Part shown: piece by piece, positions 9,201 to 17,000 of the stretch | Numbering within the stretch: position 1 is the stretch's first letter | Layout: every line of letters starts with the position of its first letter | Source: Haliotis rufescens | Taxonomy: Eukaryota | Assembly (NCBI RefSeq): GCF_023055435.1 | Contig: NW_025964112.1 | Coordinates: 47,058,001 to 47,122,000 of the forward strand | Direction of reading: 5' to 3' | DNA length: 64,000 nt | Made by a program: the position numbers and the translations under genes | The notes under the pieces: model-generated | Database searches by the model: none | Seen by the model: only the letters and a program-made list of their open reading frames with translations | What the model was told of the DNA's origin: nothing

Positions 9201-10321
9201 GTATTAGCAAGGACATTTTCAGTATCCGCTAAAACTCAGCTCAAATAAATAATTGCCCTCTTGACAATGTCTGAGAGTGTATCCTAATTCTCCATCCTAA
9301 TTCACAGTATATCACATGAACCGAAAGAAGATCTGACGTACCGAAAAGGTAACCAAGATATGAGTATACTGTACTTGACTCCCAACAACTGAGAACACAC
9401 AAATTAAAAAAAAATGATTGAAATAGCCACACATAGTTAGCCGAATAGAATGTTATTGCAAAATCGAATATCGTGGATTGAATCATTTCTCACGCTACTC
9501 TCTTGCAATGGACACTTAAAAGGAAATTTGAAAACAGTTACTACGATAAAATGAAAACTAAACGCTGTTATGCTCAAATAAACGACAGCAGTGTCCGATG
9601 GTTGTTGAGAGAATACAACAGAAATGGCACATTTCCTTCGAATATCGTTCACAACACACAAGCAACCTTTAGTAATAAAAGGGTGTTTAAAGGGCTTGCC
9701 TTCACAAGTGAGTGCATCTTAAGAAAAGTTAAACGAGTGAGGGTAAGAGATAAATTTCTACCCTAAAATAGCGGTTGTCGCTATTATATTGCCGTTTTAT
9801 GAAGGCGCGATCCTATAGCCGGGCGACGGTGAGAATACATGTAAATAATCGAAAATTAGCATGCAGATGTTTCGAATAAAATCTATAAGGCGCTGCTACA
9901 TAAAATGGCTGTTGATGATCTATAAAACAATGAAATGGCCGCATTTTTCTCCGATTGGACTGCGAGTGTTCGAGGGCTAGTTTGTACGCGACGATGAGAC
10001 GAATCTTTTACACACTGTCGAGAAGAATCGGTGAGCATAAACGGAGGTTATTGTCAGTGTTTATGCCGTAATGAATTTTTATGAAGTCTAGGCTGAAGTG
10101 AGGTGCGTCTCGCTTTGCAGAATTTGAACAGAGGTTACGGGAGAGGGGAGGGGCCCTTCTACTTAAGAAGGGTCCCCCTGACCCCCTCTAAGTGTAAAAG
10201 AACCCTAGGGTGGCAGTAAACTCACACCGGGTCAGCGGCAGGGACGTTAATTGGCTTGCTGTTATTTTATGTTCACACTTTACGACAGTATCTATCGCTT
10301 GGAGTAGTAAAATGTACTAAC

Positions 10322-10784
10322 CTACGATTGACATCCAGGGATAAAATGACGGCGTCTCTCCTTCGGTCGTTCCATTCCCGGACTTTGAGCAAGGACTCAA
10401 GCTGTCTGCCCTCGGAGCGGGATTACAATTTCCCTGGGTATCACACGGGTCTCCGAATCTCATCCCTGGAACGTTCATATTTGGGTAGAACGATGCTCGG
10501 TTTGTTTGTAGACCCATTCTCAGTTCGTGATTTCGCTGTTGAAGTGCTTCCATACGACATGCTTCGGACGCATAAGATCCCATATAATATCGTGGAGCCC
10601 TGTAGTTTCCAGTGGGACATATCTCCGGGATATTAAGAAAGTGGTCCATGTACCCAGTATTTTCGCCGGCGTGGATTTCATCCCCTCTCGGGGCGCACTG
10701 GCGAATAGGCAGGTAAGAACTCATCCCTGGTCGCTCGTAGCCGGATCGTGATGTGAGGCCACTATTAAAGCTCGCTGAAACCAT
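10322..10784 (-). CDS. Lox2: Exon 1 of a central-class Hox gene (Lox2/Lox4, Ubx/abd-A-related); homeobox exon lies outside the window
   Basis: ORF encodes MSSY (Hox SSYF-type N-terminal motif, ATG at 10724) and ends ...TPSFYPWMSIVG. The hexapeptide is followed by a consensus donor GTAG|GTTAGT (exon ends 10322, phase 1); the ORF stop at 10317 is intronic. Hox identity is strong. Lox2 over Lox4 rests on my recollection of the WMSIVG linker and needs the homeodomain to confirm. Confidence 0.88.
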
Positions 10785-10869
10785 GAAGCAGAGTAAAATT
10801 ATTTTAGTTCTAGAAAATCATTGAGATAGCTCACAGACCCGGCAACTCGTACAACAGATAAACCAGACA

Positions 10870-11002
10870 ATTTGCATACCATCCAATCAGCGGTCGTAAA
10901 TCTGACCTCCTGTGACCTTTGCACTGGTAGCTCCTTACAGCGACTCCTTCCGCTAAGAAAAAGCAGTTCGCGAGTTGCAAAGGGATTTGAGAGTGGGGCG
11001 GG
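10870..11002 (-). promoter_or_regulatory. Proximal promoter/5' leader motif cluster of the Hox gene
   Basis: Octamer ATTTGCAT 10870-10877; CCAATCAG 10883-10890; AGATTTACGAC (minus, 10903-10893); DR4 10903-10918; GC box GGGGCGGG 10995-11002. All lie within about 220 bp of the ATG. TSS unknown. Confidence 0.6.
10903..10918 (-). promoter_or_regulatory. Perfect DR4 nuclear-receptor response element
   Basis: Plus strand tgacct-cctg-tgacct = minus AGGTCA CAGG AGGTCA. Confidence 0.5.
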
Positions 11003-14000
11003 CTCACTGTATCGGTTTAATCAGATAATATAAACAAAACCGGCCCATCATAAGATTTTCTGTTAACGCGACTCGGGTGATAAATATTTAGGTAAGTAGA
11101 AATGAACTCTCTCGCTCAAAGACCAGGGCACATGTATGATAAATTTCAACATCAAAAGAAAAGCCCGATCTCTGGACAAATCGCTTTGCTATTTTTCAAA
11201 TTTTTACGTCGGTAACTAAAGACTGATAGCCTCCATGGCGATAGCAGGTTTTTATGTTGTGTTTGATCGCGCGTCGTCTGTAAGACTAAGCAGTGCTCCC
11301 AGCGTCATTGTGTAGTGTCGTCCTCTGCAACGTTCAGAGATTCGAGGTCCTCAGTAGTGAATTAAGGCAAGACTAATAAATCATTTCTCATTATTTTCCA
11401 CATAATAGAAGGAGTCGGGCCAATGTCCCTGCTTTGTTGATGTTACCAAATATGACGAAATGACACAAAAGAATATTCCAGTCGTCGTTACGTCATAAAC
11501 AAGCGGAACGTCAATTACCACGTTAATACACGAAAAATCAATAAACACAAGTTATCGACCAAAGCTTAGAAAAGGTAGAGAATATCATTAGAGTAGGGAT
11601 TGTAGTTAACAAAAAATGTGCGTTAAGTTCTGAAAATGAATACAAGGAGCTGACAAAATAGAACTAAAGAATGTTTGTAATCTGATTAATTCAACCTCGT
11701 CAGATTTTGGGCTATTATTAGGGGGCAGAGAAGAAATGTTTTACACAAATAATTAAACGGGTAACAAATAATGTAGCAACAAAATACATGTATTTCGACA
11801 CATGTATTCTACAAACCAACATGTCTAAAGCGAGGATGTGCCACATAAGTATGCCATTGCATACTGATACAAGATATATAAATATTCATGTCGTATCGTG
11901 GTCACACGTGCGTTTCATATGGTGTTCGGTTTGAAACAAATTCACAGTTTGTTTGGAAAATGTAAAATATAATTTATTTGACGAACAACACAAATGCCAT
12001 AGTCTAATCCGAGAACCGGCAATAGTATCTTGCACCCTCTCCCAAGAGATTTCCAGTAATGCCTCACAGCTGAAAGACTTTTCTCTTTCGGTTCCATATC
12101 AAATTGGGGATCTTGTCTTTATTGAAAGGATTGAGGCGATATTTGGGCAGTATTTCCCGAAACGACCTAGTACGGACTCCGAATTGACATTTCTTCTCTA
12201 AAGTGATGAATTCGCACCATAAATAATCAGAACGAATAAACATTAAATTTATATTCTTCCCGGGTGAAACATTAAATTGTCAATTGCTAAATCCAAGCCG
12301 AGAAAGGCTTTGAATCATCAGTTTACCAGAATAAAATATTATAAAATGTTATTTGGTATAGTGTGAAATACATTATCTGTTGAAATATAGAACAGGGACC
12401 GGTTTTATCAGTCCAACTTGAAATTACTACAAAACTGATATAACTGCATTAGTCACACTAAAATTCCGTGCATCCTCCAGTTGAGTATTTCTACAACAAA
12501 TAAATAACACATATAATTTGTTGATATTTACAGCTAGCATATATACACGAATAAAGATGATATAATACTTATAATACTACAGAGAGTACTTCAAGTTTTG
12601 TGAAAACTGTTCCATGTCATGAATAAGATCGCTGCATGGTTATATCAAGTGTCCAATTGTACTCCATTTGCACCATTCGTTGCAAAATTATGGGTCTACG
12701 TCTATATAAACAAACCAAATTCTACCAAATGAATTTTATCATCTACTCGCTGTCTGTTAAGACCATAAACATTTTTTTTATGCAACAGTACACTTTATAG
12801 ATTGTTTTACTGTAGACACACTGCTAAATCTCTCAGTAAAGCGAAGGTAAACACAAGGAAGACAATAAAACAATACGTAATTGATGATAAATAAAATCGT
12901 CTTTTCAGATTCAATATGGGAGATAGAGATGAAGCGGTGAGGGGTTAGACTCAATCTACAGTAAACAAACAAGCTACCGGTTCACGACTATTTACGCCGA
13001 GGAGTTCCATAAACTCTAATTTTATTACTTAAGCGGGTGCTAGAACTACCCTCAACATTACTTCTTCATTTCCCTGATGGTTACAAATATCACATACAAA
13101 ATGCATTTTACTACACTGCTGATTATCCGTGCTGTTTTGTGTAAATTCGACGAGGGTTGTTAAAGCCTCTTTCGCAGGCAATCGCGAAGAATATCACAAA
13201 TATAAAATAGAAGTAAAGATTTTACGGCCACAATAAAGCACAAGCTTCCTACCTTGATACATGTGCCCCGTTCTTCCTCAGTCTGTACAGCGTAATGGCC
13301 TATCTGTCGTTTAACGGCCAATTTTAGTAGCCTCTTGGAGTTTAAGATCGCCGGTGATAATCCGAATGAATTTGAATAAAAATAACGCTATTTGCATGCA
13401 TCTGTTTTAGGCTTCCAGTGACCGTTCTAATTTTATTTAGCACGGACAATGGACAATGCTAGACTAAAGAACGACGGATGGTGGTCACGTCTTTACGGAT
13501 CTTTTTGATCCTTACAAAATTCCTCCATTAACCACGTGACGTAGTTCCCATAGATTAAATTAATTCTTTCCCATAGAACATTTGGTTTTCGTAAATCTGT
13601 CGACGAGGTTCGGACACAATTCGGCCTAAGTCTTGAGGTGCTCGACGCGGACAATTTGTAATTGGTCAATGAGGTCCCTAGCTTCCCCCAGCTGGACCCA
13701 CCGGTCACTTAGTCGCTAAAGTAAACAGACAAATGCTGTCATTACTGTGAAATACACGCATATTATCGTTGTACCTTTCATTTTCTGCATAACGCCCCCT
13801 GACTTACGATAGGGGCCGGTGCGTATTTCGCTGTGTCAATTTCAACTCGGGTGATGGACTGTCATGTTAATATCAGCATGGTAGGGGTTGATTCGCTTTA
13901 ATTGCTTACAGAGCGGGAAATGGGATTTTCTCTCAAAAACGTCCCTCTGTCCGTCTGGGTTTAAAAATAAACAATGGCTACCCTTTGGTCTACATTTAGA

Positions 14001-17000
14001 CTTCAAAGGCATAAAATTGCAATATATAGGGGTTCGGGTGACGTGATGTCGTTATTGATAACAGATACTCACGAAACAGTTCACTAGAACACACACACAC
14101 ACCGGTTACTATATAACATTTATAACATGATCGCTCAAAATTGGATTTGTACTTTGCATTAAGGTAAGTGTTGATGCTGTCGATGTCCATCTGATGATAT
14201 ATCCGTTAAAGTAAATTGGTCTGAAATAAACACTTGAAATTAACATTGATCACAATTAGTATAAGTCTAAAACTTAATACATTCATATGTAGATCTACTT
14301 TACTGATGTGAAACCATTTCAAAGTTTTAAAGTATTTTAATATTTTCAATCATGATTAATCTTATTATTTGAATGGTTTATTGGTATATAAATTCGTTAA
14401 TATTTACAATTTAAAATCATTTGTTTTTGGTCAATTCTGAGTTTTGTCCAGTGAACATAAAGATCATATTAGCGTAACTGTATTCTGTATGTAGATAAAT
14501 CTTGTATGTTTACATGGTTTGTTTAACGAAAGGAATCTGGGTATCTGTAATGAAGTTTAACCAAAATTAAATAAATTAAACCTGTGTTTGTCGTGGTTGA
14601 CTTCCATAATCATAATCCCTGAAAAACCAAAATATAACGCTTACTTACAATTTATAATCAGTAGGTTTGAAAATTATTTGTACAATAATGGCATTTTAAG
14701 TTCATTTGAGATTTTCATCATAAAATATGCACACATTGTGTTTTCTATTTTTCTTTTTAATCTAATTTATTTGTGTTTTGAAATAATACTGATAAAGTCA
14801 GATTATGGTTAAGGTGTTATCGATTTCTTTTTAAATTTTTCAAGCCGGGATGGAGTTTAATGCGATTCAATGGCGATAATATTAACAATTTAAACACTCT
14901 GTAACAAAGGTTGAAGGTTAGTGTATTAAATTTTCGGGCGTGTCCGGATATTTTGGTGTGTCACAAGTAAATTGTATGTGATGTGACCCCCGTTTACGGA
15001 CCTATAGAGATGTTGAATTGATATGCGTCATATAATTCATTTGCCACGAGAATATCAATACCAAACAAACTAAAATTAATCGACGGGTGAACTCCTTAGA
15101 ATTAATTCACGATTAACAATTGAAATAATTAGCTTCGAATGTTATCCCGGGTGGACTACTTAGGCAGAATGAATATTTACTTCTTTTTTATTTCTATGGG
15201 CGACCGTGAAAACAGCTTTATTTATAACCATGTGCGTAATTTCGCCAACGGATGGATATAAACCTGTACAATTTCCAACAATCCCGTCGCGTCTCAAAGG
15301 GGAATTTTATTGTTTAAGGCGGGGAAGGGATGTATTTGTCGGGCCAACTTCTAAACCTATACTCTCCCCGTATTCTAGTCATACTAAAATTTGCATGCAA
15401 ATATGGTCGTTTTACGATTCTCCATGCCTGGGCCTTGGAGCGATCACCCTTCAATATCTTTTATAGACACTAAGCATGGGCATTCCCACTGTTGAGCTCA
15501 CGAGGGATAAATACGGCTGATCCTGTGGATTAAAGCATTTGGTAGATGGGCCACTAATCCACAGTTTGCAGTAAGTTATAATGCGCTAATCTCTCTCATC
15601 AACAGGGGAAATATTTGTTTACAAAACGTACGAAGCGATAGCCTTCGATCGAGGCGGGAGGAGCGGAGAGACGAGTTAGGCAGATAGCGAGGCTTGCCGG
15701 CGAAAATAGGTCGACAGTTCGGCATAATCTGTTAGGCTACCTCAGTCGACTTGTAACACTGCATTCTGGCGATCGCTGTCGCGATATGAAGGGAAATATT
15801 GATTTTTCGATGGATGTACAGCTTAAAGATGGTTACGTTTTATTAACAATCTATATTTATGATCTTAGAAGCCTCGCATGGGGCTCAGGCTTAAGGTAGG
15901 ATAGTATAGCGTTGTGAACTGCGCATAGATTGGTTCTTATCGGCCGTTATAACAAGATGCTGCAAATATTTCAATTACATTCTACAAAATGAGTGGTCCT
16001 GAATTGTGATTCGATAAATTTTGAGTAGATTTAATTTATGATATGAACTTTCACTTTTATAATTACAGTTTATGTTGATAGTTTGTCTCCAGTCACATGT
16101 TTAATAGACAATTAGTTTGTCTTATTTGATTTTGAAATGCGATTTAGGGCTTTACCGTATTATATTTAGATAATCTATTTTACATTAATGACCACCACGG
16201 ATCAACGGATTACCTATCCAGATTTAATATCTTTAAAATAATATGGTTTTGCTATGTTTTGCCAAACAAATACTTATTTATTTGTCAAAATCCTTTGGAT
16301 TGCTCAACCTTATCTACCTTAAAGTATTCAAATATTTATCTTGTTTTGTTGCAATTCAGATTTTGTTTTGCGTATTGTTAATCTGGATATTGCTGTATGA
16401 TTGAAATAATTCATATTTAGAATTATCTTACAGATACGATATCGTTTATGTGGATTTGGTGTGATTGTAGTTTGCTGAATTATCGAATGTTTTGATACCT
16501 TGCTTTTATGAATATCATTTTAAGTTTCTATTTGTCCATAAAATCGTTCTGAATTTCCTTGGAATTTGCGTTTGTTTAGATTTACTTTCGTAAGTCATAA
16601 TTAGATAATAATTCCACCGATTTTACAATAAAAGATATATAATTGATTTCTGCATTTTGATAGAGCATATTTTACTGCATATATTGATAATATATGGGTC
16701 ATATAACTTAGATAAGACACATATTTTATATAAGCCATGAAACGTGGGAAATACACGTTGCATTATCGTGATAATAAATATATTATAAATGAATCAAATC
16801 ACTGAACGGCCGAACGATGTGGTCACAGCAGAATCGTCGTCGAAATGGAGCGTGTATTAAAATTAAACAACTTACCCAAGCGTATTTTATTATTATAATT
16901 TTTACGCTTCATATAAATATATGAGTATGATAAATATAACCACCAATTTAATTTAATTTCAATTGTTGTAAATAAATCTGTTCACACTTGAGCGATGAAG

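Follow-up and report, generated by a model that had tools for sequence, protein, structure and literature searches.

A candidate nuclear-receptor element of the DR4 type in the abalone Lox2 promoter, conserved in bivalves

Introduction

A perfect direct repeat of AGGTCA with a four-base spacer (DR4) lies just upstream of a Hox start codon in the abalone Haliotis rufescens, in a 64,000-nucleotide stretch of genomic DNA (the window; coordinates given as bare numbers are window positions). The repeat raises the question of whether a nuclear receptor acts directly on this Hox gene and, if so, which one, or whether the match is fortuitous. In the cited part of a study on annelids, direct receptor control of Hox genes is described as shown for retinoic acid only in chordates (PMC5821490). 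The initial annotation of the abalone repeat had proposed input from the thyroid hormone receptor (TR) with RXR, or from another NR1-class receptor, integrated with Hox cross-regulation and possibly tied to metamorphosis.

The gene and the repeat

Eleven homeoboxes were found in order on this contig, forming an intact cluster. From their order and signatures we take them to be Hox1, 2, 3, 4, 5, Lox5, Antp, Lox4, Lox2, Post2 and Post1. The gene next to the repeat had been called a lophotrochozoan Lox gene, and it can now be specified as Lox2: RNA contigs join position 10320 by splicing to the ninth of the eleven homeobox exons, about 39 kb downstream, whose homeodomain is the same as that of a chiton protein named Lox2. 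The open reading frame 10784-10320 ends in FYPWMSIV, is 99% identical to a named Haliotis protein, and has a second, conserved Met at 10724.

10320..10784, minus strand: first coding exon of Lox2 (MVSASF...FYPWMSIV), whose splice site at 10320 leads to the homeobox exon at G000:C334:47028860
10903..10918, minus strand: DR4, two AGGTCA half-sites with a 4-bp spacer (from the window sequence and the bivalve alignment)

Letter by letter, the minus strand from 10918 to 10893 reads AGGTCA (10918-10913), CAGG, AGGTCA (10908-10903) and GATTTACGAC (10902-10893), followed by the CCAAT and octamer boxes, as originally described. The original distance of "about 120 bp" to the ATG (10784) is also fair, the first half-site lying 134 bp and the end of GATTTACGAC 109 bp away. 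Within the window, the DR4 is the sole RGKTCA direct repeat with a spacer of 0-8. The window is identical to its genome assembly across 10 kb around the DR4, and contigs from two DNA runs, which are too close to the window for a conservation test, carry the same letters throughout the element. DNA runs from a sister organism differ by just 17 letters in 4.4 kb and are likewise too close to test constraint.

The abalone 16-mer at 10903-10918, spacer included, is the core of the standard laboratory DR4 probe. It matches letter for letter the probe core printed in PMC4692385 and PMC2045677, a spacer coincidence of 1 in 256. Since the 16-mer is present in the DNA runs, this identity appears to be a coincidence.

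Conservation in bivalve Lox2 loci

Orthologous loci were sought with an exon-1 protein alignment of 40 sequences (39 of 49 matches plus the window). A scan of metagenome contigs yielded two confirmed Lox2 loci (L013 and L014) among 235 pattern matches, while searches of genome contigs (110 pattern matches) and viral contigs (13) confirmed no further Lox2 locus. Both loci are assigned by their sequences to bivalves of one clade, and in the tree they group with Mercenaria, Mya and Dreissena (97/97 support). The 450 bp upstream of the ATG are collinear between abalone and bivalves at 51-52% identity. L013 and L014 are 82% identical to each other and belong to one clade, and therefore count as one comparison. 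No collinear abalone-bivalve match was found in intron 1 or in DNA farther upstream, which indicates that neutral sequence has lost its likeness.

In this alignment the DR4 of the window, at -134, corresponds to GGGTCA-TGGG-AGGTCA at -135 in L014 and to GGGTCG-TGGA-GGGTCA at -134 in L013. The CTGATTGG CCAAT box stands at -106 in the window, -105 in L014 and -104 in L013. As both are kept in position, the register is fixed by two independent anchors. Columns invariant in all three sequences number 9/12 in the half-sites, 1/4 in the spacer and 3/16 in the 8-bp flanks; the contrast between half-sites and spacer plus flanks (9/12 vs 4/20) gives a post hoc Fisher p=0.0035. Two of the three variable half-site columns are A/G changes at position 1, which the half-site consensus (A/G)G(G/T)TCA allows (PMC9656583). 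Two direct repeats of this consensus 4 bp apart are perfect in the window and in L014, with one departure (GGGTCG) in L013. The initial annotation had proposed aligning orthologues for conservation of both half-sites and the 4-bp spacer, and in both bivalve orthologues, which represent one clade, the half-sites and their spacing are kept while the neighbouring bases drift.

Resampling of the bivalve promoters produced a loose DR4 anywhere in 450 bp in 152 and 160 cases per 100,000 (~0.15%), and any loose DR0-5 in ~1.1%. Over the 16-mer, L014 shares 13/16 bases with the window, above all 435 intron control windows, and L013 shares 10/16, a value reached by 30 of the 435. Under a rough model, the probability of the pattern surviving at the promoter-wide identity of 0.52 is ~0.001. 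The DR4 is one of several kept promoter blocks and not the strongest.

Two further matches were seen in these loci. One is a 32-bp stretch of L013 that matches window 11170-11201 in inverted orientation (E 0.01); L014 lacks it, and it was discarded as a chance match. The bivalves also share a second strongly conserved block about 1.7 kb upstream of the ATG (L013:2160-2330, L014:2270-2450), for which no match was found in the abalone window and which is possibly their distal promoter.

Neighbouring motifs and other Hox promoters

Besides the DR4, the promoter contains the following blocks.

10893..10902, minus strand: GATTTACGAC 10-mer, not kept in bivalves
10880..10890, minus strand: reverse CCAAT box CTGATTGGATG, 11/11 bases invariant in the three sequences
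10870..10877, minus strand: octamer ATGCAAAT, not kept in bivalves, also at -106 of abalone Lox4
10856..10861, minus strand: invariant TTATCT block, 6/6 bases in the promoter alignment
10941..10963, minus strand: partly conserved block TTTTCT..GCGGAAG in the promoter alignment, just upstream of the DR4
11024..11038, minus strand: TTTGTTTATATTATC, 15/15 bases invariant
11191..11200, minus strand: TTTGAAAAAT, nine invariant columns where the alignable part of the promoter ends and the alignment is less sure

CTGATTGGATG is likely an NF-Y site. We take the TTATCT block to be GATA-like on the other strand, the TTTTCT..GCGGAAG block to have an ETS-like core and TTTGTTTATATTATC to be Fox-like. A TALE site (TGACAG) was considered and dismissed, since TGACC is retained on the other strand in each of the three sequences.

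The 10-mer GATTTACGAC is presumably Hox/TALE-like. Compared with the TGATTTA(T/C)GAC-type consensus used in the initial annotation, its region agrees at 10/11 bases, the Pbx-side T being an A that belongs to the half-site. GATTTACGAC is absent from both bivalve promoters, where the slot between DR4 and CCAAT box (12 bp in abalone, 14 bp in bivalves) holds the reversed TTACGA core only. In both bivalves this 6-bp core is on the opposite strand (TCGTAA), which may reflect site turnover or chance. The proposed unit of DR4 fused to a Pbx/Hox site, and the octamer with it, thus occur in neither of the two bivalve loci. Because the 10-mer is not kept, the fused element is not ancient, and the fusion is seen here only in abalone.

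A survey of the abalone Hox cluster, with the start codons of the paralogues inferred from ORFs, found exact GATTTACGAC within 1 kb upstream of 4/11 Hox ATGs (Hox1 -280, Lox5 -465, Antp -670, Lox2 -118). Genome-wide there are 2409 copies, or 1.8 per Mb. Its presence near three of the other ten Hox genes compares with 0.018 expected (P ~1e-6, or 9e-4 with a tenfold promoter background; Hox1 joined this count after the pattern was noticed). This recurrence makes GATTTACGAC probably a real Hox-cluster motif. Next to the DR4 it is likely a separate Hox cross-regulatory site, found here only in abalone.

Reverse CCAAT boxes lie within 250 bp of 9/11 Hox ATGs. At 6/11 abalone Hox promoters, those of Hox1-5 and Lox5, the CCAAT box is accompanied by a TCACGTG E-box (G000:C334; L015-L054, L107), at a CCAAT-to-E-box distance of 14-15 bp in Hox1-5, an arrangement that may represent an ancestral core promoter of Hox genes. 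A perfect octamer downstream of the CCAAT box is present in both Lox2 and its paralogue Lox4, and no octamer was found within 250 bp in the other Hox promoters. Two perfect AGGTCA DR5 repeats lie near Hox1, at G000:C334:45958264 (Hox1 intron) and 45986584 (upstream of Hox1). In chordates, Hox1 is a gene with classical retinoic acid response elements (RAREs).

These promoters bear on who reads the kept bases. If not a receptor dimer, the reader would be a single receptor molecule on one of the half-sites, a protein with zinc fingers, or a factor of a decayed GTCACGTG E-box like the CCAAT partners at other Hox promoters. The E-boxes of Hox1-5 and Lox5 are consistent with such a reader, as the Lox5 E-box begins AGGTCACGTG upstream of its CCAAT box. 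So is the better conservation of the 3' half-site (5/6 columns invariant vs 4/6 for the 5' half-site), and abalone also carries AAAGGTCA, presumably an NR4A-type monomer site. However, the two half-sites stand 10 bp apart in all three sequences, CACGTG is found in none of them, and the A-rich 5' extension is missing from both bivalves. A non-dimer reader is considered unlikely.

Candidate receptors

Exons encoding DNA-binding domains were found in the abalone genome whose best matches, by structures, are TR, RXR, an NR1H-type receptor (the FXR/EcR/LXR group) and COUP-TF. Receptor identity was checked for 4 of 30 loci fetched from 68 matches, and the best matches of L069 (TR, E 1e-21) and L064 (RXR, E 9e-31) concern single exons only. 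To this extent the expectation of TR and RXR orthologues in the host is borne out.

Binding data from lophotrochozoans do not single out DR4. Oyster TR prefers spacings in the order DR3>DR2>DR5>DR0>DR4>DR1, which places DR4 fifth of six. Tested alone, it was activated by neither T4, T3 nor TRIAC in the cited results, and the unliganded receptor represses (PMC4692385). Schistosome TR bound DR0-DR5 without spacing preference and produced no shift together with RXR (PMC2045677). Oyster RAR and RXR bind DR0-5 in yeast (PMC9656583). Annelid RAR/RXR prefers DR1, 2 and 5, with DR4 competing marginally, and annelid RAR is reported in the same source not to regulate hox expression (PMC5821490). In oyster larvae a RAR antagonist lowered hox1, lox5, lox4 and post2, lox2 not being among the genes named in the cited text (10.1101/2025.03.09.642214).

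If these data are set against the original reading, DR4 does not serve as a pointer to TR in lophotrochozoans. A classical thyroid hormone response element, with TR/RXR on the DR4 and T3/T4 switching Lox2 at metamorphosis, would agree with the conserved repeat and with the TR- and RXR-like exons. It would also agree with the binding of DR4 by amphioxus TR/RXR stated in a review, and with reviews reporting that Haliotis species metamorphose in response to T4 and that molluscs do so less after knockdown or knockout of TR (PMC10083991, PMC8222990). The same reviews conclude that mollusc TR acts unliganded. The low rank of DR4 and the missing hormone response of oyster TR, together with the absence of a spacing rule in schistosome TR, argue against hormonal switching. 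Moreover, limpet lox2 is on from gastrulation, in gastrulae and trochophores, and later at the shell-field edge (10.1101/603092). The hormone-switched reading is considered improbable. As for the wider endocrine or metamorphic link proposed for Lox2, no result of this analysis ties the site to hormone or metamorphosis.

Which receptors would bind if receptors bind the DR4 can be graded. An NR1H (EcR/LXR-like) or other NR1 receptor is tentatively put first, a COUP-TF or TR2/4-type NR2 dimer is possible though doubtful, TR is somewhat unlikely, and any other receptor is improbable. The retained 4-bp spacing gives a slight edge to an RXR/NR1 heterodimer, as a spacing-selective pair, over an NR2 dimer.

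Occurrence of DR4 by chance

The genome contains 1272 perfect DR4 repeats in 1.334 Gb, along with 1435 perfect DR3 and 1298 perfect DR5, each about one per Mb. Reversed-pattern controls gave 395 (DR4), 627 (DR3) and 722 (DR5), all below the true counts. At about one perfect copy per Mb, the DR4 motif alone is weak, suggestive evidence. The initial annotation had stressed its rarity, an estimate that needs tempering. At the genome-wide density, 0.061 perfect DR4 are expected in 64 kb, and 0.0026 in the 250-bp stretches upstream of the 11 Hox ATGs taken together. When one mismatch is allowed, 28 of 100 shuffles of the window contain a match, and AGGTCA itself is present there in 62 copies.

Over 663 kb of the Hox cluster, four perfect DR0-5 repeats were found, which is no excess and close to the genome rate if equal frequencies are assumed for DR0-2 and DR3-5. 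The Lox2 DR4 is the only loose DR0-5 in the 1-kb regions preceding the 11 Hox ATGs. Only Lox2 among the 11 Hox promoters has a direct repeat, and no paralogous DR4 was found at Lox4 or the other Hox promoters (0/10, 1 kb upstream of ATGs).

The combination of DR4 and CCAAT box occurs four times genome-wide, two of them inside copies of one high-copy repeat family, and was rejected as a recurring promoter module on these grounds. A transposon origin of the Lox2 element is not supported, as the four other repeat copies examined lack the first half-site. In the interspersed repeat (934 candidates; L056, L057, L089-L094), 13 bp separate a CCAAT box from a GGGTCA half-site, and a DR4 is formed in two of the copies. 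Such a family could spread receptor/NF-Y cassettes across the genome.

The frequencies allow for a lucky perfect DR4 in abalone inside a promoter conserved for other reasons. Perfect DR4 repeats are no more frequent than DR3 or DR5, the few composites with a CCAAT box include repeat copies, and the identity of L013 alone is unremarkable. Yet the register is the same within 1 bp, the changes in both bivalves respect the half-sites, and retention of the pattern at the promoter-wide identity has a low probability in the rough model. Chance likeness is regarded as quite improbable.

Lox2 transcripts and the site of the DR4

Spliced Lox2 contigs were obtained from five runs guessed to be RNA, belonging to four studies. 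These are five of six such runs containing the sequence, none of which is recorded as RNA.

10814..10873, minus strand: zone in which 4/5 spliced Lox2 RNA contigs stop, a weak hint of a start zone from contig ends
10775..10780, minus strand: splice acceptor TTTCAG, lying within the first codons, to which the distal exon is joined (RNA contig)
13253..13346, minus strand: distal first exon with the in-frame ATG of MYQ-ASF; the 3' end is sure, the 5' extent is estimated from a 92-letter loose end

The contigs end at 10814, 10843, 10846, 10873 and 10944. Four of the five stop 20-79 bp downstream of the 3' end of the 10918-10893 element, and one passes through it to 10944. Such contigs cannot map a transcription start, and the four ends give a weak hint of a broad start zone of a proximal promoter just downstream of the CCAAT box. 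In one RNA run, a distal exon ending at 13253 is spliced into 10774. The annotated 268-aa protein begins MYQASF, matching this distal exon, and a 248-aa form begins at the conserved Met21. With two first exons, the DR4 would lie in the proximal promoter for one transcript class and in intron 1 for another. Both this intronic position in some transcripts and the single spliced contig that crosses the element count against the promoter reading.

An element acting at the RNA level, kept for splicing because transcripts of the distal promoter have it in their first intron at 128-143 nt from the acceptor, would draw on the join at 10774 and on the MYQ start of the annotated protein, but it is scarcely credible given that the DR4 stands beside an invariant CCAAT box at a promoter-typical distance and that the main spliced contigs run unspliced through the proximal ATG.

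The two alternative first exons give in-frame proteins differing in two residues (MYQ-ASF vs MVS-ASF), and the proximal Lox2 ATG and the splice acceptor overlap within 10775-10784. Farther upstream than the proximal promoter, the putative RNA runs gave scattered contigs of low depth (10953-12320 and 13076-14095); they could be unspliced distal transcript, divergent transcription or DNA. A small-RNA run gave no reads over 9800-14200, which is uninformative. Lox2 intron 1 (9860-10090) holds a cluster of CCATTT and CATAAA/TTACGG words, for which no match was found in the bivalve introns. We take its CCATTT words to be YY1-like.

Proposed role of the DR4

Taken together, the DR4 is probably a selectively kept motif of the Lox2 proximal promoter, one that likely binds a nuclear-receptor dimer tuning transcription without thyroid hormone. 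As a candidate, it is most likely bound by such a dimer independently of ligand, within a Hox promoter of long standing. NF-Y at the CCAAT box would drive a promoter starting about 30-90 bp upstream of the ATG. With 12-14 bp between CCAAT box and DR4, the dimer on the upstream side would set the level of this promoter, most likely as an unliganded repressor or permissive factor. The stronger proposal, that an RXR heterodimer with TR or an EcR/LXR-like NR1H receptor has directly gated Lox2 since before the gastropod-bivalve split, is rather unlikely. If it were true, chordates would not have invented the direct control of Hox genes by nuclear receptors. In molluscs such control would pass through a DR4 and another receptor, and it might link life-cycle transitions with the patterning of trunk and shell field.

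A cross-class DR4 at one Hox promoter offers a single 16-bp target for asking whether another nuclear receptor controls Hox genes directly in protostomes, and the TR and NR1H receptors of molluscs, which are poorly understood, would have in it a candidate natural target. A search of the open full-text literature, judged by titles and starts of abstracts, returned no description of a receptor element at Lox2. The terms 'retinoic', 'nuclear receptor' and 'RXR' are absent from the main text of a 2026 preprint on lophotrochozoan Hox regulation (10.64898/2026.05.18.725834). The Lox2 DR4 is a real conserved element, apparently undescribed, with one independent comparison behind it.

Comparison with known systems

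The nearest parallel is found in the chordate Hox RAREs, which are DR2/DR5 sites of RAR/RXR. As in those elements, an AGGTCA direct repeat beside a Hox gene was kept in evolution and would place that gene under direct nuclear-receptor control. In contrast to them, the Lox2 spacer is 4 in all three sequences, not 1, 2 or 5, and the gene with this site in its proximal promoter is a protostome Hox gene of the late central group. In geometry, the repeat is like the DR4 thyroid hormone response element bound by TR/RXR in vertebrates and amphioxus. The LXR element shares this DR4 geometry. Unlike in vertebrates and amphioxus, the lophotrochozoan TRs tested have, in the results cited above, no DR4 preference and, in oyster, no hormone activation.

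A DR4 in a molluscan promoter has a precedent in oyster Tyr-2, where it is bound by CgRAR in yeast one-hybrid. The Tyr-2 repeat differs from that of Lox2 in being imperfect and belonging to a pigment gene, and the cited section mentions no cross-class conservation (PMC9656583). Frith and Ni (2023) described developmental promoters with near-invariant CCAAT boxes kept since the Cambrian or earlier, in which abalone is rich (PMC10735318). The Lox2 promoter resembles them in its deeply conserved DNA and invariant CCAAT box. It differs in that the abstract of that study mentions no Hox gene and its cited text no receptor element, and in that its own conservation is between a gastropod and bivalves only. 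Finally, the human HOXB4 promoter, which uses NF-Y with USF1/2 (cited in PMC3454409), also has a CCAAT box near a Hox start, as do abalone Hox1-5 and Lox5 with their CCAAT and E-box pairs. Unlike HOXB4, Lox2 is without an E-box and carries the DR4 beside its CCAAT box instead.
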